DNA from: Escherichia coli
GTDB lineage: Bacteria > Pseudomonadota > Gammaproteobacteria > Enterobacterales > Enterobacteriaceae
Length of the DNA: 64,000 nucleotides
Assembly (NCBI RefSeq): GCF_051903065.1
Contig: NZ_CP178438.1
Reading direction: 5' to 3' (one strand)
Shown: piece after piece, positions 1,452 through 62,495 of the stretch
Position numbering within the stretch: position 1 is the stretch's first letter
Layout of the letters: the number at the start of each line of letters is the position of its first letter
The notes under the pieces: model-generated
The model's database searches: none
Told to the model about the DNA's origin: nothing
Seen by the model: only the letters and a program-made list of their open reading frames with translations
Translations under genes and position numbers: made by a program

Positions 1452-1527
1452 TCCTCTGTAGTTCAGTCGGTAGAACGGCGGACTGTTAATCCGTATGTCA
1501 CTGGTTCGAGTCCAGTCAGAGGAGCCA
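1452..1527 (+). tRNA. asnU: tRNA-Asn (anticodon GTT)
   Basis: 76-nt sequence TCCTCTGTAGTTCAGTCGGTAGAACGGCGGACTGTTAATCCG...GGAGCCA matches the E. coli tRNA-Asn cloverleaf with GTT in the anticodon loop. Which asn locus name applies is inferred from neighbours. Confidence 0.93.
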
Positions 1528-1536
1528 AATTTCTGA

Positions 1537-1564
1537 AAAGCCCGCTTTTATAGCGGGCTTTTTG
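1537..1564 (+). terminator. Rho-independent terminator after tRNA-Asn (possibly bidirectional, also downstream of cbl)
   Basis: GC stem AGCCCGC...GCGGGCT followed by TTTTT. Confidence 0.65.
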
Positions 1565-2515
1565 CTATATCTGATAATCAATTTCCTCTTCACTGTTTTC
1601 CATCACCTGCCGCTTGATATCCTCAACTGAAAGTCCTGCATTACAAAGTTCCAGAAAGCGCCAGACATAGTTACGCTGAAGTTGTCCTCGCTTCAGTCCC
1701 AACCAGACAGTATTAGCATCAAAAAGATGCCGCGTATCCAGGCGGATTAAATTCTTTTCCTCTTGTTCACCGCTGGATTGTTCGGCAACTATTCCGATCC
1801 CAAGCCCAAGAGCAACATAGGTTTTAATGACATCAGAATCCTGCGCACTTAATACAATATCTGCCAGCAAACCTTTGCGGGCAAATGCGTCATCAATACG
1901 TGAGCGCCCCGTAATCCCCTGTCGGTAAGTGATTAACGGCCACTTCGCTATTGATTCCAGCGTCAATGGTGTAATTTGCGTCAAGGGATGATCGAGTGGA
2001 ACAAGCAAACTATGGTGCCAACGAAACCACGGGAAGGCGACGAGCTGCGGGTCATTACTCAAACGCTCGCTGGCGATACCAATATCAGCTTCACCATTAT
2101 GCAACAACGTCGCAATTTCCTGTGGCGTCCCCTGGATTAGCTCGAGCCGAACCTCCGGGAAAAGTTCGCGAAAAGCTTTAATGACCTCTGGCAAGCTATA
2201 ACGTGCCTGAGTATGCGTCGTTGCAATAGTGAGAACGCCAGACGTATCGTTGGTAAACAGGTCTGCAAGCCGACGAACATTACTGGCTTCATTGAGAATA
2301 CGTTCTGCAATGACCAGTAATGCTTTGCCCGGTTCAGTCATGCCCAGCAGTCGCTTACCTCGTCGAACAAATATTTCGATGCCAAGTTCATCCTCCAGTT
2401 CCCGAATATGACGGCTGACGCCTGACTGTGAGGTAAAAAGCATATTCGCAACCTCTGTCAGGTTGTAATCCTGACGTGCAGCCTCGCGGATTATCTTTAG
2501 TTGTTGGAAATTCAC
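1565..2515 (-). CDS. cbl: LysR-family transcriptional regulator Cbl (sulfonate-sulfur utilisation)
   Basis: 316-aa ORF with N-terminal HTH (MNFQQLKIIREAAR...) and LysR substrate-binding domain; position beside nac; start codon appears to be GTG. Confidence 0.88.
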   Translation of the reverse strand: MNFQQLKIIREAARQDYNLTEVANMLFTSQSGVSRHIRELEDELGIEIFVRRGKRLLGMTEPGKALLVIAERILNEASNVRRLADLFTNDTSGVLTIATTHTQARYSLPEVIKAFRELFPEVRLELIQGTPQEIATLLHNGEADIGIASERLSNDPQLVAFPWFRWHHSLLVPLDHPLTQITPLTLESIAKWPLITYRQGITGRSRIDDAFARKGLLADIVLSAQDSDVIKTYVALGLGIGIVAEQSSGEQEEKNLIRLDTRHLFDANTVWLGLKRGQLQRNYVWRFLELCNAGLSVEDIKRQVMENSEEEIDYQI

Positions 2516-2616
2516 GGTAAACTCCGGGCAGTTCAGATTTCCCGTTATTGTTAAAGTCTAATGCCCGGCATAACAAATAATAAAAACCCGCATCTTATTC
2601 CATCCCGATATAACGC

Positions 2617-3534
2617 TTAGCTCACCAATTGCCACTGCCTTTTTTCCATCACTGGAGAACTAATCACTGACATTAACAACTCTTTCACTGCCTGTGCCTG
2701 TGGTGACAAGTTCGCTCTGGCGGGTAAATTTAATGACAAAGAGAGACTCATGGAAGGAGTGGTAATGCGTGACATCCACCCGTTTACTGCGCCACATAAC
2801 GAACGCGCGGCCGATTCAGGTAATACTGCAACGCCCATGCCGCTGGCAATCGCTGCGGTAAGCGTGGCAATAGACTCAATTTCACCAATGACTTTTGCCG
2901 TGAGTCGCCGTAGGGAAAACGCCTCATCAACACGAAGTCTAACAGCGCTGTAATCACTGGGGAGAAAGAGGTTCATTTGTGCAATAGCATTAACATCAAC
3001 GCTTTGCCCCGGGCAATCTTGAGTTCCTACCAGGAAAAGATCTTCTTTCAGCAAAGCCTGACTGGATACCCCAGCCACAGGGGAATGCTCATAAATCACC
3101 GCCATATCGAGTTGGTGATTTATCAGTTTTTCGTTAAGCACTGCACCGCTATTTTCATGAAGATAGATAACGATCTCCGGGAATTCAGCGCGAACCGCCT
3201 GTAATAAGGGCATGGTGATGGATGACGCAGCGGTTCCTGGCGCAAAGCCAATCGAGACTTGCCCCGATAATGCCTGACCAACGTTATGCACCGCCAGTTG
3301 GGCCTGCTCACACTGACGTAAAATGGCCCGCGCATGGGTATAGAGAATTTTTCCGGCGTCTGTTGGCGTAACGCCCCGTTTTGTGCGAATCAAAAGTTGT
3401 TGATTTAACTCACCTTCCAGTGTGGCAACCTGCTGGCTGAGCGCTGGTTGTGCGATATGCAATACTTCAGCAGCCTGAGTCAGGCTACCAATATCTACAA
3501 TTTTTACGAAGTATTTCAGGCGTCTGAAGTTCAT
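2617..3534 (-). CDS. nac: Nitrogen assimilation control protein Nac (LysR family)
   Basis: ORF with internal ATG at 3532-3534 giving MNFRRLKYFVKIVDIGSLTQAAEVLHIAQPALSQQV...; the track ORF is extended 10 codons upstream. Confidence 0.88.
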   Translation of the reverse strand: MNFRRLKYFVKIVDIGSLTQAAEVLHIAQPALSQQVATLEGELNQQLLIRTKRGVTPTDAGKILYTHARAILRQCEQAQLAVHNVGQALSGQVSIGFAPGTAASSITMPLLQAVRAEFPEIVIYLHENSGAVLNEKLINHQLDMAVIYEHSPVAGVSSQALLKEDLFLVGTQDCPGQSVDVNAIAQMNLFLPSDYSAVRLRVDEAFSLRRLTAKVIGEIESIATLTAAIASGMGVAVLPESAARSLCGAVNGWMSRITTPSMSLSLSLNLPARANLSPQAQAVKELLMSVISSPVMEKRQWQLVS

Positions 3535-9991: not shown

Positions 9992-10465
9992 TTAGTGATG
10001 TTTTGGCTGCACAGCAACATACATTTCGATATCCCAGTACCCATCTTCCGCGCCATTGTTCAAATAAACCTCGAAGCAGGGCTTTGGTAACATTTCATAA
10101 GCACTGTCCTGCAAGAGGCTATTAAAGAACTGATACCAGGGTTTAGCAAAATCATCACCGACTACACGAGCTACCGCCACCGCATACTGACCACCTGAAA
10201 TTTCTGTCAGAATGACGCCCTCACTGTTTTCGGGAAGCGTAAAGTAACCCGGCACCGTCACGACGGTGTCGCAGCGTAATTTTTCGGCGGGTGTTTCATC
10301 TGGATTGTCGTAATAGACAGCAACCCACTCCTTCGGCACAATATTTTTACTATCTACCCACATCATCAACTGCTCAAAACCTTTCTTTACCGTCTGTTCC
10401 CACGGGCCAACGAGATGGAAACCTGCAACGGTACGTTTATCTTCCTGCTTAATCTCGTAGTTCAT
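9992..10465 (-). CDS. sbmC: DNA gyrase inhibitor (GyrI/SbmC)
   Basis: 157-aa [36 protein letters not shown]... Confidence 0.9.
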
Positions 10466-30169: not shown

Positions 30170-30916
30170 TTAAGCGTGTTTTCTTAATGCACGCTGGATA
30201 TAATGCAGAAAATAATACATTGCCTTTACATATCCAAAACCAAGATAATAACGGTAAAACTCCCATTGCGATTTTATTATTTTTATCTTATTCGATGATA
30301 AACTTAAATGACCTTCGCGATAAAATGCTAGGTTTTTATTTAGGCAGTGGGCATAATCTATTTTTTGCAGGATTATTAGCCATAATGCCATATCTTGACG
30401 CTTTCGTATGAGTGGCATATATACTTTACCCACAACTTCCGTGTCATAAATTGCAGTAAGGCATCCGATAACATTGGATTTCAGTAAAGAAGAAAAATCG
30501 ACTTTTGATGGGGGCAGAATATCTTTTTTAATATTACCATATGCATCAATTTTACTATATGCAGTATAAGTAAGGGCGTAGCCATTCATAATCATATAAT
30601 TAATCTGCTCTTTTAGTTTATCGGGTGCCCATAGATCATCACTATCTAAAAAAGCCAAAAATCGTCCACTAGACTCTTTTATTGAGTTGTTTCTTGCTGC
30701 GCCTGCGCCTTTATTTTTATCTGAAACAAAAAGTTTTATCCTGTCATCTTGCTCAACAAATTCTTTAACTATCTGACAAGTTCTATCTGTTGAGCAGTCA
30801 TCAGTAATTAACAACTCCCAATTAGAATATGTTTGTTCTATTACCGATTTTATACTTTCCTTAATTGTGAATTCAGAATTATAACTGGGCATAATAATTG
30901 ACACAAGATAATCCAT
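30170..30916 (-). CDS. O-antigen glycosyltransferase, GT2 family
   Basis: 248 aa, IIMPSYNSEFTIKESIKSVIEQTYSNWELLITDDCSTD (GT-A fold, DxD); AT-rich. Confidence 0.75.
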   Translation of the reverse strand: MDYLVSIIMPSYNSEFTIKESIKSVIEQTYSNWELLITDDCSTDRTCQIVKEFVEQDDRIKLFVSDKNKGAGAARNNSIKESSGRFLAFLDSDDLWAPDKLKEQINYMIMNGYALTYTAYSKIDAYGNIKKDILPPSKVDFSSLLKSNVIGCLTAIYDTEVVGKVYMPLIRKRQDMALWLIILQKIDYAHCLNKNLAFYREGHLSLSSNKIKIIKSQWEFYRYYLGFGYVKAMYYFLHYIQRALRKHA

Positions 30917-30918
30917 TA

Positions 30919-31950
30919 TTATTTCCTCCCTTTATTTTGATCGTAGCCTTTCGGGTTTTTTATTTGCCAATTCCAAGAATCTCGTAGCATATCCTCTAAA
31001 TTTAATTTGGCTGACCAACCGAGTTCATTGAAGGCTAACATTGGATCAGACCAACATTCTGCTATATCTCCATCTCGCCTTGATATAACACACTTATTTA
31101 TTTTTCTAGCTATAATTCTCTCGAAAGTATCAACCAACTCTAATACTGAATATCCTTTACCTGTACCTAAATTATATATCCTGATAGAATTTTCTTTAAA
31201 CTCTGCATTCAAAGCAGCAATATGTCCATCGGCAAGATCCATAACATGAATAAAATCCCGAACTCCATATCCGTCCCTGGTAGGATAATCATTCCCAAAT
31301 ATTTTCAATGAATCTAATTCGCCTATAGCAACCTTAGTGAGATATGGTACAAGATTATTAGGAATCCCATTCGGAGCCTCACCTATCATTCCACTGGGAT
31401 GTGCTCCTACCGGATTAAAGTATCGTAATGAAATAATATCAAAACCATAATTTGCTTTCGCAAAATCACAAAGGATTTGTTCTGCCATTAATTTCGAAGT
31501 GCCATAAGGATTTGTTGTACCACCTACTTTACATTTTTCATTTAATGGAATTTGTTCAGGCTCACCATAAACCGTTGCAGAAGAACTAAAAATAATTTTC
31601 TTGGCTTTGCTATTTATCATAGCACTAAGGACACTAATTGTTCCCTGAACATTATTATTATAATATTCAAGAGGCCTACTGATTGACTCAGAAACAGATT
31701 TCAACCCAGCAAAATGAATGACCGCATCAATATCTTTATTAATAATTACTTCGTGTAATAATTCTGTGTTAAGTATATCCATTTCGATAAAGCAAATGCT
31801 TTTTTGCGTGATATTCTCTACACGCTTAATTACCTCAGATGAAGAATTAACCAAATTATCCACAACAGTAATTTCATTTTCATTTTCTAATAAGCGAAGT
31901 ACCGTATGCGAACCAATATAACCAGCCCCACCTGTTACTAGGATATTCAT
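30919..31950 (-). CDS. UDP-hexose 4-epimerase (GalE/Gne-like SDR)
   Basis: 343 aa, MNILVTGGAGYIGSHTVLRLL... with GxxGxxG and Y..K (YGTSK) motifs; AT-rich. Confidence 0.8.
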   Translation of the reverse strand: MNILVTGGAGYIGSHTVLRLLENENEITVVDNLVNSSSEVIKRVENITQKSICFIEMDILNTELLHEVIINKDIDAVIHFAGLKSVSESISRPLEYYNNNVQGTISVLSAMINSKAKKIIFSSSATVYGEPEQIPLNEKCKVGGTTNPYGTSKLMAEQILCDFAKANYGFDIISLRYFNPVGAHPSGMIGEAPNGIPNNLVPYLTKVAIGELDSLKIFGNDYPTRDGYGVRDFIHVMDLADGHIAALNAEFKENSIRIYNLGTGKGYSVLELVDTFERIIARKINKCVISRRDGDIAECWSDPMLAFNELGWSAKLNLEDMLRDSWNWQIKNPKGYDQNKGRK

Positions 31951-31951
31951 A

Positions 31952-32638
31952 TTACTCCTTACGATATCGCATGATAATTTTTCTTTTAATTCTCTCTAAA
32001 AAAGAAAGCTTCCAACTTTTAGCCCAATGATGGATAGCATAACAATCTTTTGTTATATATCTATAAAGTAATTGTGATCGTTTGGCACTACCATAAGGGT
32101 TATATGGATAAAAATATTTATCAGAGTATATTGTGATATCTTTAATAGTAGAAATATCTTGTGAATCTATTTTTTTTACACCATGTAAGTCCAAAATATT
32201 TTTTAAAAGAAAAGGAATTGTTTGCATACCATTTGCTTTTATGACAGCTGCTTTTAGCTCTTGGAAAAGCCAAAATTTGGGTTCACAACCCAAAATACCA
32301 CAACTAGGCGTATCAATATCTTCTTCGCCGATAAATGCAATATTTTTTCGCAATGCAGAAATATCCCGTACTAATTCCATATCAGTATCGAGATATATAC
32401 CACCAAAACGATATAATACATCACATCGGATCAAATCTGCAGCAAATGCAAACTTTTTCCTTTGGATCATTTCTTCAACAAAATCATTCTGACCAAATTC
32501 CTTTCTATAAGAATCCTCATTCCATAAATAGCAATCGTAATTTACAGCATGTTCTTTCCACGACTCCATACAATCTAAATATATTTTAGGGATTTCACTT
32601 TTACCAAGCCAAATATAATGAATTATTGCTGGTATCAT
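31952..32638 (-). CDS. O-antigen glycosyltransferase (GT32-like, DXD motif)
   Basis: 228 aa, MIPAIIHYIWLGKSEIP... then ...GGIYLDTDME... Confidence 0.65.
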   Translation of the reverse strand: MIPAIIHYIWLGKSEIPKIYLDCMESWKEHAVNYDCYLWNEDSYRKEFGQNDFVEEMIQRKKFAFAADLIRCDVLYRFGGIYLDTDMELVRDISALRKNIAFIGEEDIDTPSCGILGCEPKFWLFQELKAAVIKANGMQTIPFLLKNILDLHGVKKIDSQDISTIKDITIYSDKYFYPYNPYGSAKRSQLLYRYITKDCYAIHHWAKSWKLSFLERIKRKIIMRYRKE

Positions 32639-33501
32639 AACGATTTTCCTTTAACTTTATTCTTGATTTTTACAAGAAAAAGACATGTAATAAATAAAAC
32701 GAAAACAGTAAATTTTGTCTTTTTCTTTACAACTATTAGATTACTAATATTAAAAATGGGAATAAAATGAAAAACGGTTTGTTTAATGACATTAATACCA
32801 AGACCTTTTAGATTCAAGTTATTGATAACAAAAGCCATCGTGCCATTGATGTTTTTCCGCAAAAGATCAGTATAATTAGAAGTTAAACCTCCTGGTAAAT
32901 ATTCACTATAATAGATGATCTCATTGAAATATTTAAAGTAGCCATTTTCTAAAATTGAATTCCAAACCAATGCCTCAGTTATAAAATTTTCACCATCAAA
33001 AACAGGAAATTGATTTTTAAGTAAAGAATCACGTTTTATGATTAATGCTTTATCTCCCTTTGTACCTGCAAACTTTTCCAGAGAAATATTTTCAATTGTT
33101 TCCGCTTTACCTACAATCTCTTTTGTAGTTTTATACCCCCTCAGGAAAACCATCCCTTTACATTTATCATCAACAATTGCCTGGATTTTTTCATTGGCTA
33201 GAGCAATAGCGTTGGGCGTTAATATATCATCACTATCAACAATAAATATCCAGTTAAACGACGAAATTTCTATCCCTATATTTAAGGCTGTGTGTTTTCC
33301 ACCGTTCTTCTTATATCTATATATGATTTTAAATGGGGATGTCGACGCTATTTTGTCAATAACCTCTTTTAAATTATCAGTAGAACCATCATCAATTATC
33401 ACCCATTCAAAATCATAAGATTGTTGTGACATTAAGGATTCATATAATTCATAGACTAACAAAGCTCGATTGAATACAGGAGTAATTACTGAAATTGACA
33501 T
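32635..33501 (-). CDS. O-antigen glycosyltransferase, GT2 family
   Basis: 288 aa, MSISVITPVFNRALLVYELYESLMSQQSYDFEWVIIDDGSTDN. Confidence 0.75.
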   Translation of the reverse strand: MSISVITPVFNRALLVYELYESLMSQQSYDFEWVIIDDGSTDNLKEVIDKIASTSPFKIIYRYKKNGGKHTALNIGIEISSFNWIFIVDSDDILTPNAIALANEKIQAIVDDKCKGMVFLRGYKTTKEIVGKAETIENISLEKFAGTKGDKALIIKRDSLLKNQFPVFDGENFITEALVWNSILENGYFKYFNEIIYYSEYLPGGLTSNYTDLLRKNINGTMAFVINNLNLKGLGINVIKQTVFHFIPIFNISNLIVVKKKTKFTVFVLFITCLFLVKIKNKVKGKSL

Positions 33502-34793
33502 CTAACCCTTCCAAAATCATTAATCAAACGCCATGGGAAAATAATATACTTCAAACTCTGTAATTGCATTTTAAACATATTTTTAGTTTTTGGTATAAAT
33601 ATAAAAATCAAAAAGTTAGCAATAAAATAAGAAAGCAATGATACAGAAGCAGCGCCAACCGCTCCATATTTTGGTATAACAATGATATTCAAAGTTATAT
33701 TCAAAATTGCAGCAATAATGGTTTTTATCACTTCTAAATTAATATAATTCTTACTAAATAACCATTTAGATGAAAATGATCCTAAAAAAACAAAAACACC
33801 ACTCCACATATGAACCATTAATACTTGCGCCGATAAATCCATATTATCGCCATATAGTATTTTTATAATTATAGGTGACAGAGCAATCATAATAATTGCA
33901 CCATATATAGAGATTACACTTACAACTCCGCATATCCATTTCAAAAAGATAAATGATTCTTCCTCTCCTATTTTTTCAAGCTGAACAATTTTTGGAAAAA
34001 AAGCGTTCGCTATCAAACCTCCACACATAAACCAGATGGCTGATAACCTAAGAGCTGCACTAAATGCCCCAGCCTCTTTTGTACCTGTAAGAGACTCTAA
34101 TAAGATAACATCACACTGTGTAAATAGTGATACACTAATAGTTGATACAATGAGTTTACTCCCCATAAAAAAATACATTTTGACTAATTCTAAATCAATC
34201 GTCCATTTTGCTGAATAAGGGAAATAGAATTTGTATATAGTAAAACTAAAAAGAGCTTGAATTAAATAAAAGAAAACATAAGCATAAAAGACATACCAAC
34301 CAAAATATATACAACACCAAAGATAACCATATGAAACGGCCACACTACTTAGAATTGTGATAGCACGATATTTTGATTCAACCAATGCCGAATAATGAAA
34401 AAATATTACTTTAGCATACAAGCTAAAAAAATTAGCAACGATTAATATCGCCACGAATATAAAAGCGAACGGTATATCATAGTAAAAATAAATAACAATG
34501 GTAATAAAAGCAGATGCATATAATAACAGTCCTAAAAACTGTAAGAATAATGCACATCCAATCTCAGTGCCCGTTGATGATGGATTTTCAACAATTCTTT
34601 TAACTACGACTATATCAATGCCAAATAAAAATAACGATAGTAATATTTGTGAGATATTCATTATCGTTGCCCAACTACCCAAGATATCTAACCCATAGAT
34701 TCTTTTGATAGAAGCAAAAAGTGACAGCTGAAATACCAGCATGAACACTCGGTCACTCAACAACCAAAATAGGTTACTTAAGTATTTTTTCAC
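33486..34793 (-). CDS. wzx: O-antigen flippase (Wzx, MOP superfamily)
   Basis: 435-aa polytopic membrane protein, strongly AT-rich, apparent GTG start. Confidence 0.72.
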   Translation of the reverse strand: MKKYLSNLFWLLSDRVFMLVFQLSLFASIKRIYGLDILGSWATIMNISQILLSLFLFGIDIVVVKRIVENPSSTGTEIGCALFLQFLGLLLYASAFITIVIYFYYDIPFAFIFVAILIVANFFSLYAKVIFFHYSALVESKYRAITILSSVAVSYGYLWCCIYFGWYVFYAYVFFYLIQALFSFTIYKFYFPYSAKWTIDLELVKMYFFMGSKLIVSTISVSLFTQCDVILLESLTGTKEAGAFSAALRLSAIWFMCGGLIANAFFPKIVQLEKIGEEESFIFLKWICGVVSVISIYGAIIMIALSPIIIKILYGDNMDLSAQVLMVHMWSGVFVFLGSFSSKWLFSKNYINLEVIKTIIAAILNITLNIIVIPKYGAVGAASVSLLSYFIANFLIFIFIPKTKNMFKMQLQSLKYIIFPWRLINDFGRVRCQFQ

Positions 34794-34796
34794 GTG

Positions 34797-36023
34797 CTAG
34801 TTACCTTCATTGATATAGTTAACACCTTTATCAATTGCCTCCAATATATAATCAATCATACCATACACACCCTCAGTAAATGGATGATTATTTAGGAAAG
34901 TAAACATGTTATTCCCTAAAGACACATTATACATTAAATACAAAAAAGGCACTAAATTTACTACATATAAACAAATAAGTAGGGCATATTTACTCCTACC
35001 TTTTCTCTCAAAAGCTTTTAGATAAGGTAAAATAAAGTAGGGATAAAAACCAAAAATAATCATACCCAATCTATTCGAAAGTGCTGGGAAAGGTAATAAT
35101 ATTAAGAATAGAAAACACTCCTTACAAAATAAAATCTTATTAAAATCATCACATTTACTTCTCTTCCCTATCATTATAATAAAGCATATATTTACGACTG
35201 TAATGATAATATAATTTAACGGCAAACGTGTGAATTTATCGTTCCCAGAAACTGAAGTGAATTTCGATAATAGCACAGAATAAATTGGCGTATTATAAAC
35301 CACAAAAAACACAACTAAAAGTCCAATAAGAATAGAAAAAACAATTTTTGCATATGAGTATTTTTTTGAACCAAAGATCATATAAACTGCATATATAAAA
35401 ACATTAACAACTGCAGACATGTGAAAAAAAACACTCAATAAAAAAAAGATATATTTTTTAAATGAACGCTCATTTATAGCATACAGAAAAACAACCACAG
35501 ATAAAACCTGTCGAAGAAAATATGATGTAACTTCTATAAATCCTAAGTTAAAAAAGAAAAGCGATAATAAAAAAAGTTTATATTTTTTTTCAACATCTTT
35601 AAGAATCTTGGATAAAAAAAAGACGATCAGAAAATAAGTAGAAAGTAAAAATACTTCATCATTGCCATCTGAAATATACCCAATAAATTTCATGATGGCT
35701 AAAAACATAAATTCCAGCCCATCACCAAATCTTGAATAGCCAAAAACATCAATTAAATTATAATTTAACTCATGGTAAACATGAAGATACTCTGCAATAT
35801 CTCCAAATGGTTTTAGTGTGGAAAAAAAAATAATAATAAACACCAATAGTGCATAAAAATAAAAATTACGCAATACTGGGTGTAACAATGGCGAGAGGGC
35901 ACCAATAAATATCAATACAACAAGAGGGTAAAAGAATGTTGCCAATAATAACAAAGGAATAAAATATACAACACAGTTATTATTTGACAATGAATTTTCA
36001 TTGCTGTTTTTATAAATATTCAT
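34797..36023 (-). CDS. wzy: O-antigen polymerase (Wzy)
   Basis: 408-aa very hydrophobic Phe/Ile/Leu-rich protein with about 10-12 predicted TM segments, typical of Wzy; lowest-GC gene in the window. Confidence 0.68.
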   Translation of the reverse strand: MNIYKNSNENSLSNNNCVVYFIPLLLLATFFYPLVVLIFIGALSPLLHPVLRNFYFYALLVFIIIFFSTLKPFGDIAEYLHVYHELNYNLIDVFGYSRFGDGLEFMFLAIMKFIGYISDGNDEVFLLSTYFLIVFFLSKILKDVEKKYKLFLLSLFFFNLGFIEVTSYFLRQVLSVVVFLYAINERSFKKYIFFLLSVFFHMSAVVNVFIYAVYMIFGSKKYSYAKIVFSILIGLLVVFFVVYNTPIYSVLLSKFTSVSGNDKFTRLPLNYIIITVVNICFIIMIGKRSKCDDFNKILFCKECFLFLILLPFPALSNRLGMIIFGFYPYFILPYLKAFERKGRSKYALLICLYVVNLVPFLYLMYNVSLGNNMFTFLNNHPFTEGVYGMIDYILEAIDKGVNYINEGN

Positions 36024-36825
36024 ATCGGGAATATCCTTTTAGCAGAATAAATAATGCAGCTATTTTTTTAATTCTGCCGCATTTTTTTTTAAAAAGAAAT
36101 TTTTTCACCCAGAATATGAAGATATATAGTAACCCTAAATATCTACCACCACAGCGTACAAAAATAGCACTTCTATCAGATAGGGCATCTGTTTCATTAT
36201 AAATTTTTTTACCAGAACTTTCTATTGGATGCACAGTAATTGTGACAGGTATAAAAATAATATTATTTTTTGTTTTCATAAGATCCGTAACAAAAATCGG
36301 TTCTTCACCCGCTTTATATCTAGCCCCCAATCCGAAACACTCATCAAACCAAACATTACATTCCTGTATTTGATTCACATTAAGGCACATTTCTATTGAA
36401 GAAATGTTAAATGCTGACAATCTATTTAGCCTTTTCCTCATTAGCGGATATTTTTTCCTTAGTCTTCCGTCTTGCGTACAACTTTGAATTTGATAATGAT
36501 ACTTGCCTCTATCTTCGATTATTCTATCTTTTAGTTCATAAAGTCCATTAACAAGGTAAGCGACATCATCATCACTTATAATCATATAATCAACGCTTTT
36601 TTGAAATGCAGTAGCCAATAAAATGTTTCTGCTTTTACTTAACCCTTTACAGTATGTCGTTATTATTATTACATTGTTTTTCTTACAAATATCCCCATAT
36701 TGTTTTTGCTTATCAGTCACTTGATGTGAAATTATTATTAAAAATTCATCTGGTATATTTTTTATTTTTTCCCAAACCTGATTTATTCCATTATTTAATG
36801 TTGATATACCTATAGCTATTTTCAT
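36010..36825 (-). CDS. Putative glycosyltransferase (GT-A like), first gene of the O-antigen operon
   Basis: 271 aa, MKIAIGISTLNNGINQV... with ...MIISDDDVAY... Confidence 0.55.
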   Translation of the reverse strand: MKIAIGISTLNNGINQVWEKIKNIPDEFLIIISHQVTDKQKQYGDICKKNNVIIITTYCKGLSKSRNILLATAFQKSVDYMIISDDDVAYLVNGLYELKDRIIEDRGKYHYQIQSCTQDGRLRKKYPLMRKRLNRLSAFNISSIEMCLNVNQIQECNVWFDECFGLGARYKAGEEPIFVTDLMKTKNNIIFIPVTITVHPIESSGKKIYNETDALSDRSAIFVRCGGRYLGLLYIFIFWVKKFLFKKKCGRIKKIAALFILLKGYSRYEYL

Positions 36826-36854: not shown

Positions 36855-36895
36855 TAAATAACGCTACCGCCCCTGGCTTTACAGCTACCAGAGCA
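36855..36895 (-). promoter_or_regulatory. JUMPstart element with ops (RfaH-dependent antitermination) upstream of the O-antigen operon
   Basis: Plus-strand AACGCTACCGCC is the reverse complement of GGCGGTAGCGTT (ops core GGCGGTAG); surrounding CCCCTGGCTTTACAGCTACCA also occurs upstream of wza. Confidence 0.7.
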
Positions 36896-37156
36896 CTGCA
36901 TGCATGTCTACGATGTGACGAGCGTTACCCACTCGCGCTTAACTCGAAAAATTCAAACGCTAATTGTCTTACCAATCCGCTCTGGAAACAAGGAAAATCC
37001 TGGAAAACTTTGACTAAAATCCTATTGCTAACTCGTTGTTATTCTGATTGTTTATATAAAACAACGGCAGGAATATTCGCAACAAATTACTTTCGCCACG
37101 AATCCTCACTGCCGTTATAATTTTCTTATCAACCGTTACATCCGGTCAGATTTTCA

Positions 37157-38050
37157 TTATTCGCTTAACAGCTTCTCAATCCCTTTACGGAACTTCGCCC
37201 CTTCTTTCAGGTTGCGCAGTCCATACTTCACAAACGCCTGCATATAGCCCATTTTTTTACCGCAGTCGTAGCTTTCACCAGTCATCAGCATTGCATCAAC
37301 GGACTGTTTTTTCGCCAGTTCAGCAATGGCATCAGTCAGCTGAATACGCCCCCATGCACCAGGTTGAGTGCGTTCAAGTTCCGGCCAAATATCGGCAGAA
37401 AGCACATAGCGACCAACGGCCATGATGTCTGAGTCCAGCGTTTGTGGCTGATCCGGTTTTTCGATGAATTCAACAATGCGGCTGACTTTGCCTTCACGGT
37501 CCAGCGGTTCTTTGGTCTGAATGACGGAGTATTCAGAGAGGTCACCCGGCATACGTTTTGCCAGCACCTGGCTACGGCCCGTTTCATTGAAGCGCGCAAT
37601 CATGGCAGCAAGGTTGTAGCGCAGCGGGTCGGCGCTGGCGTCGTCGATCACTACGTCTGGCAGTACCACGACAAATGGGTTGTCGCCAATGGCGGGTCGT
37701 GCACATAAAATGGAGTGGCCTAAACCTAAAGGTTCGCCCTGACGCACGTTCATAATGGTCACGCCAGGCGGACAGATAGACTGCACTTCCGCCAGCAGTT
37801 GACGCTTCACGCGCTGTTCAAGGAGAGATTCTAATTCATAAGAGGTGTCGAAGTGGTTTTCGACCGCGTTCTTGGACGCGTGAGTTACCAGGAGGATTTC
37901 TTTGATCCCTGCAGCCACAATCTCGTCAACAATGTACTGAATCATTGGCTTGTCGACGATCGGTAGCATCTCTTTGGGTATCGCCTTAGTGGCTGGCAAC
38001 ATATGCATCCCAAGACCCGCTACCGGTATAACTGCTTTTAAATTCGTCAT
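37157..38050 (-). CDS. galF: UTP--glucose-1-phosphate uridylyltransferase paralogue GalF
   Basis: 297 aa, [43 protein letters not shown]... Confidence 0.95.
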
Positions 38051-38292
38051 TATTTTCCTACCTCTAAGTGGCTGATAGTGCGTAAATTATTGCCATAGAT
38101 TAGCCAAACGGTATGGCTATATACCAAAGCTTAGTTCCGCATAACTTTGATTAAACCTTGCGATAACACTACACACCATCAGCATCTGGGTTACTCGGAT
38201 TACTCGGAATTCCGCATACTGATAATTTAATCAGTACCTCTTTCCGAATAATCGTAGTCCAACCTGGTCCTTTTTTCTCTGACTCTTCTGCA

Positions 38293-39288
38293 TTACTCAG
38301 AAACAAACGTTATGTCGTCTTTTTTGGCATGGACGAATTCATACTGCAGAGTTCGATCCAGACCTTGCGACAGCGTATACGGTGCCACAAAACCTGAAGA
38401 ATGCACTTTCGTTGCGTCAAACTGTGTTGTTGCGCAGAATTTTTTCACGCGCACTGAGCTGACAGCGTATTTTTTGCCCGTAATTTTGCTCAGGATATCA
38501 AAGCAATATCCACCCAGCATTCCTAGTGGGTAAGGCAAGTGCATAGAAGGGATCTTTTTGTTCAGGCTTTGTTCAACTTCAGCAACCAACTGGTTCATGT
38601 TCAAGTCTGGCTTATCAACGTAGTTATAAACCTCATAACCTGCGGCAACATTCTTCAGTTTGTACTTGATAAACTCAACAATGTTTCCAACATACGCCAT
38701 GGACTTATAGTTAGTCCCTGCCCCCACCATCATAAACTTACCGCCAGCGATCTGTTTCAGCAAGTTATAGACGTTACCGCGGTTGCGTTCACCGAAGATA
38801 ACGGTAGGACGGATGATGGTTAATGAACGTTCTGTTGGTGCTTTGTTATACCATTCACGCAGCACTTCCTCTGCCTGCCACTTACTTTTGCCGTAGTGGT
38901 TGAAAGGATCGTGTGGATGGTTTTCGTCAGGGTTGTGTTTGTTCAAACCATAAACAGCAACGGAACTGGTAAAGATGATATTTTTAACGCCTTTTTTTTC
39001 CATGGCCGCCAACACATTGCGGGTACCCTGAACGTTGACATCATAATAGAGAGAAGTAGGGCTGACGTCATCGCGGTGTTCCGCTGCAAGTAGTACAACA
39101 GTGTCAAAACCGGCTAACGCCTGGTCGAGTGCCTGTTGATCACGAACATCGCCAATCTGTGTGATTTCTGGATAAAAGTGGCTCTGCTGTTTGTCCAGGT
39201 TCTTGATATTAAAGTCAGCAATTGCCGTTTCAAGTAGTCGGGTTCCTACGAATCCGGAAGCTCCTATGAGCAAAACGTTATCGTTCAT
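38293..39288 (-). CDS. gne: NAD-dependent sugar epimerase (UDP-GlcNAc/GalNAc 4-epimerase Gne-like)
   Basis: 331 aa, MNDNVLLIGASGFVGTRLL... with Y..K (YGKSK); sits between galF and wcaM, where K-12 has no gene; resembles the Z3206-type gne location remembered from O55/O157. Confidence 0.6.
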   Translation of the reverse strand: MNDNVLLIGASGFVGTRLLETAIADFNIKNLDKQQSHFYPEITQIGDVRDQQALDQALAGFDTVVLLAAEHRDDVSPTSLYYDVNVQGTRNVLAAMEKKGVKNIIFTSSVAVYGLNKHNPDENHPHDPFNHYGKSKWQAEEVLREWYNKAPTERSLTIIRPTVIFGERNRGNVYNLLKQIAGGKFMMVGAGTNYKSMAYVGNIVEFIKYKLKNVAAGYEVYNYVDKPDLNMNQLVAEVEQSLNKKIPSMHLPYPLGMLGGYCFDILSKITGKKYAVSSVRVKKFCATTQFDATKVHSSGFVAPYTLSQGLDRTLQYEFVHAKKDDITFVSE

Positions 39289-39445
39289 AAATCACTTTAG
39301 TCTGGTTGTTACGTAAGAAACACAAGATAAAGATGAGTACCTTCCCTGAGTAGTCAATGCTGCCCAGCCCCAGCTTTAACAGTTAGTGTGAGGATTATAA
39401 TCTTTTAGAACATTATATCCAGTAAGTTTATGAATGGTCGCAAAT

Positions 39446-40840
39446 CTACTCCCTCCGTTCCGGCAATCTAAAGTTAATCTTTTCCACATTAATAATATGG
39501 TGATTAACTCTGTCGATATCGACGGAGCTTTGCCCTTTTTCATTCACCGCATGAACATTTGCAAGAGATAGCAGTGTTTCTTTTTTCGCCATAAAGACGC
39601 CGCGAACGTCTTTGCGCATGTCAAAGTTCATGCTCAATGCGGGTCCAACAGAGGATTCCTGCATCACCTTGATATTACGCATAAAAAGATGTTGCGGTTT
39701 ATTGTGTAGCTCAAGCGACGCACGCTTCATCTCAATGTTAGTCAGTGCCACAAAGGAGACGGCATTCCCGGCGGAGATTTGGATGCCGCGCAATTTATAA
39801 GCAAGATGGGTGTTATCCAGTTGAATATTATTCACTCGGAAATTTTGCGGTATCGAGAGATATTTGCCTTTAATTACCCCATAGCCGATTAACATCCCGG
39901 CGCTATTAATCATTTCAATATTATCAATCACAAAATTGTCACAACCGTAAATAGCGACCGTCGCGTTATCAATACCTGCTTTCTTACTGAAATCCGGCGT
40001 GATATTGCGGGCTTTGATATTACGAATAACAAAATGTTTACCATTTTCAACATGGATCAACTGCCGACAATCCGATCCCGTGATATTCGCCACGACAAAG
40101 TTTTTCACTGCCTGATCTTCTGGGTAATTATTATCGTAAGTGCTTCCCGCAAGGCCTATGCCGATGCCCCAGTTGATTTTGCCGTTAGTACAGTTGATGC
40201 GCTCGATGACATGGTCGGAGATCAAAATATCACTGTCGTTAATTGCCACGTTCCATTCAATGGCGTCGCCCTGTAAGTCGCTGAACTTACAATTGGTGAT
40301 GTTGGCACCGATAATCTGGTTATGAAATCCCTGGCGTAAGATGGCGTAATTAGCGTGGCTAACGGTCAGGTTATCGATGGTCAGGTTGCGCATGACCCGT
40401 TTGTTTTTGCCGCCGATATAAATCTGCGTTACCGGACCAAAGCCGCTCATCGCCAGCCCTTTGATGGTGCAGTCAGAGCCACGCACATCCAGGGTGATGT
40501 TATGCATACTGCCGCCCTCCTCCCCTGTCACCTGGCTGCCGTCCTGTAAGACAAATCGCCCTCTGCCGTTGCCGCGCAGGCTTCCAAGGATGTGTAAAAT
40601 TTTACCGGGAGGGATAAAGATGCCGGTGTTGATATTGTCACAAACCAATCCGCCAGGCACGACGACCGTATGCCCTTCGCTGAAGGCTTGTTTAAATGAG
40701 GCGATCCAGTCGTGAGGGTTGTAGTCGTTAATGTTAACGCTTTGTCGGGCGGGAAGTGCGCGAGCAAAAGGGGTATGGAGGAAGGCAAGCGCGGAGCTTG
40801 CCGTCAGGAAGGTGCGTCGGGAGAGTTTTTTAAATGGCAT
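39446..40840 (-). CDS. wcaM: Colanic acid biosynthesis protein WcaM (Tat signal)
   Basis: 464 aa, [28 protein letters not shown]... Confidence 0.9.
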
Positions 40841-62439: not shown

Positions 62440-62495
62440 TTTCAGGCATCCAGACACGCTACCGCCCCTGGCTTTTTAGCTACCAATACACTGAT
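62440..62495 (-). promoter_or_regulatory. JUMPstart/ops element in the wza 5' leader
   Basis: Plus-strand CACGCTACCGCCCCTGGCTTTTTAGCTACCA; reverse complement contains GGCGGTAGCGTG; about 180 nt upstream of wza. Confidence 0.75.

Follow-up and report, generated by a model that had tools for sequence, protein, structure and literature searches.

The open reading frame (ORF) that lies between galF and wcaM in the window, i.e., in the whole 64,000-nucleotide stretch of Escherichia coli DNA that was analysed, is best read as gnu, the gene for an UndPP-GlcNAc 4-epimerase that would make the lipid-linked first GalNAc. The probability of this reading is estimated at about 0.9. A gnu gene between wcaM and galF has already been described and is an ordinary feature of E. 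coli, present in roughly a quarter of its genomes. The identity, intactness, motifs, fold, position, and distribution of the gene come from the present analysis. For the substrate specificity of Gnu, the source is published work on the O157 enzyme, one residue away from the window protein.

Identity of the Gene

The ORF listing gives one uninterrupted reading frame with an ATG start, and its translation contains no internal stop. The product matches the Pfam families PF01370 Epimerase (1.2e-30) and PF01073 3Beta_HSD (4.4e-27), and the strength of these matches makes a chance ORF far from likely. The protein shares 330 of its 331 residues with the E. coli O157:H7 protein WP_000999466 (Gnu, Z3206), which has the same length and is encoded at the same wcaM-galF position, downstream of an identical promoter-like region. 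The initial annotation had pointed to such a Z3206-type location in O157 and O55 strains, and the near-identity and the shared position bear this out. [quoted passage not shown] The window protein belongs to a cluster built at 90% identity (P0001, 2299 members) that is named as UndPP-GlcNAc 4-epimerase, and RefSeq/PGAP gives it the same product name. Comparison of the window and O157 alleles revealed 13 synonymous differences and one non-synonymous difference, a ratio that indicates purifying selection on gnu.

The NCBIfam profile search of the Gnu protein returned no model at or above its cutoff. The galE equivalog TIGR01179 (cutoff 262.3) reached 71.5 bits and covered residues 5-170 only, and NF007956 reached 55.7 bits against 394. 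Since the TIGR01179 score falls below the cutoff, the protein is not a member of the GalE family. A direct comparison with the GalE-like protein of the O-antigen cluster gave a similar picture: the identity is 30% and is confined to the N-terminal ~160 residues, and the C-terminal substrate domain is not GalE-like.

The features of the locus are collected in Table 1.

Table 1. Features of the gnu locus and the adjoining O38 cluster (window coordinates).
Feature	Coordinates	Strand	Description and evidence
O38 O-antigen gene cluster	30170..36825	-	Weak GT2-like orf271, wzy, wzx, GT2, GT32, gne, GT2; megablast, annotation, Pfam
In-cluster GalE/Gne-clade UDP-hexose 4-epimerase	30919..31950	-	343 aa; TIGR01179 437 bits (cutoff 262)
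JUMPstart with ops	36860..36898	-	5' leader of the O-antigen operon; Rfam RF01707 58.8 bits (gathering score 35), E 2.9e-12
galF	37157..38050	-	Downstream neighbour of gnu; TIGR01105 688 bits (cutoff 659), NF007516 665 bits; RefSeq annotation
gnu-specific segment	38068..39431	.	1364 bp: galF-gnu spacer, gnu, and most of the gnu-wcaM spacer; BLAST of the H5 junction
gnu CDS	38293..39288	-	331 aa; predicted UndPP-GlcNAc 4-epimerase (EC 5.1.3.26); ORF call, O157:H7 identity, RefSeq product name
Sigma-70 promoter-like site	39394..39421	-	TGGATA, 16 nt, TATAAT; 10/12 consensus matches; ~105 nt upstream of the gnu ATG, in the gnu-specific segment
wcaM	39446..40840	-	Last colanic acid cluster gene, upstream neighbour of gnu; NF007517 1020 bits (cutoff 808); RefSeq annotation

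Motifs and Fold

The Gnu protein carries the NAD-binding motif GASGFVG at residues 9-15 (G9-x-x-G12-x-x-G15) and the catalytic residues S108 and Y132-GKS-K136 (Y-x-x-x-K). In an alignment of 115 family members, which reaches down to 34% identity, G9, G12, S108, and Y132 never vary, and the conservation of G15 and K136 is 90% or higher. An AF2 model displays an extended-SDR fold with a pLDDT of 96.3 and a pTM of 0.93. This confident model was obtained with 115 diverse family representatives as input; a shallow alignment (24 sequences with at least 80% identity) gave a pLDDT of 61.6. The closest solved folds are sugar 4-epimerases, namely 8rdh from P. horikoshii and the UDP-GlcNAc C4-epimerase 6wjb from P. 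protegens, with TM values of 0.72-0.76 and 20-22% identity. When the PDB is searched with the sequence instead, the sterol-acting NSDHL (6jkg) comes out on top. Sequence and fold searches of the PDB found no structure of Gnu itself. No transmembrane or strongly amphipathic segment was found in the protein sequence, so the sequence gives no account of how Gnu would reach a membrane-embedded substrate.

Genomic Setting of gnu

The gene order of the window is yeeO, his, wzzB, ugd, gnd, the O-antigen cluster, galF, gnu, the colanic acid cluster, and yegH, which is that of a standard E. coli chromosomal stretch. galF is the conventional left border of the O-antigen locus. Much of what the initial annotation had said of the position of the gene was confirmed. 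The ORF and the profile matches of its neighbours establish an extra, intact SDR gene between galF and wcaM on the same strand, and the intergenic gaps measure 157 nt between wcaM and gnu, for which 160 nt had been quoted, and 242 nt between gnu and galF. The gene had also been placed outside the O-antigen operon. The exact ops nonamer GGCGGTAGC is found at 36863-36871, within the JUMPstart element (RF01707) and between galF and the first O38 cluster gene; gnu lies upstream of this leader and is therefore outside the RfaH-dependent O-antigen operon. Two further exact copies of the nonamer occur on the minus strand, one at 62458-62466, close to the 5' end of the region with the colanic acid cluster, and one at 10170-10178, in the his region.

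That wcaM lies directly beside galF in genomes without the gene was checked in strain H5, in which the two are separated by a gap of 174 bp. When the H5 junction was compared with the window by BLAST, homology broke off at 38067, which is 17 bp ahead of the galF ATG, and restarted at 39432, 14 bp past the wcaM stop. The megablast breakpoints are concordant (query position 144 corresponds to window position 39432). With H5 as the reference, the 1364-bp gnu segment thus stands where genomes that lack gnu have ~143 bp of unrelated spacer. No direct repeats or IS remnants were found around the segment.

A different arrangement was observed in E. coli G6/7 (NZ_CP060061.1). In the stretch 1501-3232 of the extracted locus, which corresponds to window positions 38053-38285 and beyond, the galF-gnu spacer is kept, an IS1A element stands in place of gnu, and of wcaM a truncated pseudogene is left. 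IS1 seems to have mediated a deletion that took out gnu together with the end of the colanic acid cluster.

The O38 Cluster and the Predicted Role of gnu in It

In megablast, the O-antigen cluster of the window is 100% identical to that of strains with an O38-family annotation of wzx and wzy and 99.5% identical to that of NCTC9038. The comparison with strain ECNB21-M121 covered the interval from galF to wcaM (1395 bp) and the O-antigen cluster (6.8 kb), and both are 100.0% identical. The cluster has no annotated initiating transferase; it contains three clear glycosyltransferases, wzx, wzy, and gne only, besides a weak GT2-like ORF. The latter is the first cluster gene (36010-36825, minus strand, 271 aa), which is annotated as hypothetical, shares 14 nt with the start of wzy, and has a sub-threshold GT2 match of 17.8 bits against a cutoff of 23.3. 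Its product may be a fourth, divergent glycosyltransferase.

The second GalE-like ORF that the initial annotation had seen inside the cluster is real, as its TIGR01179 score demonstrates. Its product aligns without gaps to residues 1-337 of E. coli GalE and has Cys at gatekeeper position 299, at which GalE has Tyr. Among PDB entries, it scores highest against the Y299C mutant 1lrk, crystallised with UDP-GlcNAc (392.6 bits versus 387.5 for the wild type). [quoted passage not shown] The Cys299 gatekeeper therefore predicts the use of UDP-GlcNAc/UDP-GalNAc by the in-cluster enzyme. RefSeq names the gene 'galE: UDP-glucose 4-epimerase GalE'. It is more likely a gne whose predicted product is a UDP-GlcNAc/UDP-GalNAc enzyme that probably also acts on UDP-Glc/UDP-Gal.

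Such a pair of epimerases has precedents. In O86, gne1 (= gnu) lies upstream of galF and the GalE-clade gne2 (= gne) lies in the cluster, as in the window, and both are required. [quoted passage not shown] The gne of O86 is the first gene after galF, whereas that of the window stands sixth among the seven genes of the cluster. The gnu and gne pair of O125 has the same two-epimerase layout and has been read likewise (PMC9680116). By analogy with O86 and O125, the pair in the window predicts an O38 unit with GalNAc as the first sugar and with GalNAc and/or Gal later.

The predicted use of gnu in O38 antigen synthesis has to be weighed against a second reading of an intact gene. gnu could be functional and yet a passenger in the O38 strain, brought in by recombination between galF and wcaM, with an O38 unit that starts with GlcNAc. 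The gene lies on a separate segment outside the operon and has a GC content of 45%, in contrast to 27-35% for the O38 cluster genes, which suggests that it can be exchanged independently of the cluster. The apparent IS1-mediated loss of gnu in strain G6/7 points in the same direction, as do 10 cases among the serogroups surveyed in PMC3682973 in which gnu or gne is present though the O-unit structure predicts neither. However, in the same survey, the occurrence of gnu upstream of galF, or its absence there, agrees with what O-unit chemistry would predict for 104 of 115 E. coli serogroups (its Table S2, a set to which O38 does not belong). Twelve O38 genomes span the full cluster query, and ECNB21-M121, the one inspected in full, has gnu. 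The ORF is also intact and bears the mark of purifying selection described above. Hence, a passenger gene is considered quite unlikely, and the preferred reading is that of a gnu that would serve the O38 pathway.

The Substrate of Gnu and the Older Name gne

The title of the original paper (Wang 2002) names a UDP-GlcNAc C4 epimerase gene, and the initial annotation likewise saw a gne-like UDP-hexose 4-epimerase. The part of this assignment that stands is the NAD-dependent SDR 4-epimerase; the substrate does not. In the account that PMC3682973 (Cunneen 2013) gives of Rush et al. 2010, the O157 enzyme was inactive on UDP-GlcNAc and converted UndPP-GlcNAc, the product of WecA, into UndPP-GalNAc; PMC7685785 summarises the conversion likewise. 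In these citing papers, the substrate specificity of Gnu traces to this one biochemical study. As a consequence of that result, the gene was renamed gnu and 'gne' was kept for the GalE-clade enzymes. In the scheme of PMC3682973, gnu forms clade D and gne, with the GalE-clade enzymes, clade A. A 2019 review (PMC7685785) and studies on O125ac (PMC9680116) and LL004 (PMC8657804) use the same gnu assignment, and the wcaM-gnu-galF spacing of LL004 equals that of the window. With UndPP-GlcNAc as the substrate and no reported activity on UDP-GlcNAc, gnu is not a second UDP-hexose 4-epimerase. The proposed division of labour, in which the two epimerases would supply UDP-Gal and UDP-GalNAc, was consequently abandoned. 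Gnu would instead make the lipid-linked first GalNAc, and Gne, with its Cys299, would provide UDP-GalNAc, and probably UDP-Gal, for later residues.

The view that the protein is a soluble UDP-GlcNAc (or UDP-Glc) 4-epimerase, a 'gne' that supplies UDP-GalNAc/UDP-Gal to WecA or to a glycosyltransferase, is nevertheless understandable. The protein has an extended SDR fold whose nearest solved structures are UDP-hexose/UDP-HexNAc 4-epimerases, it matches galE models weakly at its N-terminus, and it contains no membrane segment. Some orthologue entries are called 'UDP-glucose 4-epimerase' or 'UDP-N-acetylglucosamine 4-epimerase', and the 2002 title has the same import. Against this stand the lack of UDP-GlcNAc activity that PMC3682973 relates for the O157 orthologue, the altered LPS after either knockout in O86, the restriction of the TIGR01179 match to the N-terminal half with a C-terminal substrate domain unlike that of GalE, and the fact that the cluster already contains a GalE-clade enzyme with a small gatekeeper residue. 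Taken together, they make a soluble nucleotide-sugar epimerase highly improbable.

Comparison with the two established epimerase groups helps to place the lipid-linked enzyme Gnu. The GalE/Gne clade A (TIGR01179) belongs to the same superfamily and shares the NAD+ motif, the S/Y/K residues, and C4 epimerisation, with a TM of ~0.73 between the Gnu model and 1nah and 1lrk. Its identity to the Gnu protein is, however, ~20-30% and limited to the Rossmann half, and its substrates are UDP-sugars, in contrast to the polyprenyl-diphosphate-linked sugar of Gnu (PMC3682973). WbpP/WbgU (GnaB, clade B UDP-GlcNAcA 4-epimerases) are also SDR 4-epimerases of N-acetylated hexosamines and were formerly called 'Gne' too (PMC3682973). 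They differ in their clade, in their UDP-linked uronic acid substrate, and in being always paired with a WbpO-type dehydrogenase, a partner that is missing here.

The initial annotation had named a dehydratase or reductase as best match, or a disrupted ORF, as grounds for giving up its assignment; the closest relatives are epimerases and the ORF is intact. A different SDR chemistry, with a 4,6-dehydratase or 4-keto reductase acting on a sugar precursor, has a negligible chance and was rejected for 38293..39288: dehydratases do appear among the fold matches, and there are sub-threshold NCBIfam matches to the LegB 4,6-dehydratase (81.6 bits), the RmlD reductase, and dTDP-glucose dehydratase, but these matches lie far under their cutoffs, the top fold matches are epimerases, the protein is nearly identical to an enzyme reported as a 4-epimerase, and the correlation with GalNAc-initiated O units would be left without explanation because the formation of GalNAc needs C4 inversion only.

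Proposed Pathway

In the proposed pathway, the first step would take place at the cytoplasmic face of the inner membrane, where WecA, which is encoded elsewhere (ECA cluster), would load undecaprenyl phosphate with GlcNAc-1-P. Gnu would then invert C4 of the lipid-linked GlcNAc and convert UndPP-GlcNAc into UndPP-GalNAc. By analogy with GalE, a hydride may be abstracted by a tightly bound NAD+ with the help of Tyr132, Lys136, and Ser108, and, after a 4-keto intermediate, returned on the opposite face. The O38 glycosyltransferases would extend the UndPP-GalNAc primer with UDP-GalNAc, and probably also UDP-Gal, provided by the in-cluster Gne. The completed unit would be flipped by Wzx and polymerised by Wzy. 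In this scheme, gnu would be expressed from its own 1.36-kb segment, outside the operon controlled by RfaH/JUMPstart and probably from its own sigma-70 promoter.

Putative Promoter and Transcription

Both gaps flanking gnu had been suggested as places to look for an independent promoter. The gap between wcaM and gnu contains the promoter-like site of Table 1; a consensus scan of the minus strand of the gnu-galF gap found no such site. Cronobacter and AP025685 share the -10 element 'TTATAAT' and the preceding 'TAAAAG' ahead of their gnu genes, and O157 has an identical site. The 39394..39421 site is thus a putative promoter that, judged from its sequence and conservation, probably functions. 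No intrinsic-terminator-like hairpin or stable RNA structure was found on the minus strand of the wcaM-gnu gap (39289-39445; fold z-score +0.84). With no terminator between wcaM and gnu, transcription of the Rcs-regulated colanic acid operon could continue into gnu and galF.

Distribution and Wider Family

gnu with its flanks was found in 1314 of 5426 complete E. coli genomes, at 95-99% identity. In twelve E. coli genomes, the copy of the region is divergent (80-90% identity). The gene also occurs in two 'plasmid' records which, given their lengths of 4.8 Mb and 439 kb, are probably chromosomal or carry a wrong label.

Orthologues with at least 80% identity are spread across Enterobacterales. 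Some of them, at 82-87% identity, stand at the head of wzx/wzy polysaccharide clusters. The order is wcaM-gnu-galF followed by the O-antigen cluster in Cronobacter, yegH-gnu-galF-wzx in AP025685, and cpxA-gnu-...-wzx-wzy in Xenorhabdus. An exhaustive search for the Gnu family (E <= 1e-30) yielded 365 clusters at 50% identity. Among the more distant relatives, P0139, P0148, P0188, and P0195 (39-48% identity) are fused to GT4 glycosyltransferases, each on one contig, so that fused gene calls or assembly errors are possible. In another relative (P0250, L012:5001-6944), also from a single contig, the Gnu-family domain is fused to a PF02397 Bac_transf initiating phosphoglycosyl transferase of the PglC/WbaP type, and the neighbouring PglF-, DegT-, and PglD-like genes form a bacillosamine-like cluster. 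The GT4 and PF02397 fusions are consistent with action on lipid-linked sugars.

Significance

The gnu locus itself offers no new biology, and the value of its analysis lies first in annotation. The gene should be named gnu rather than gne or galE, and the in-cluster 'galE' is better called gne. The predicted O38 unit, with GalNAc as its first sugar and a further GalNAc and/or Gal, can aid the assignment of the first sugar and of glycosyltransferase order when O-antigen structures are read, and the enzyme is of relevance to glycoengineers who want an UndPP-GalNAc primer.

Two broader readings are regarded as unlikely. In one, the Gnu family is a branch of a much wider SDR class that modifies polyprenyl-attached sugars; in the other, E. 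coli transcribes gnu either from a conserved promoter of its own or by read-through out of the colanic acid operon. If the latter were true, an own promoter or Rcs-linked read-through would mean that the choice of the first sugar is regulated apart from the RfaH-dependent O-antigen operon.
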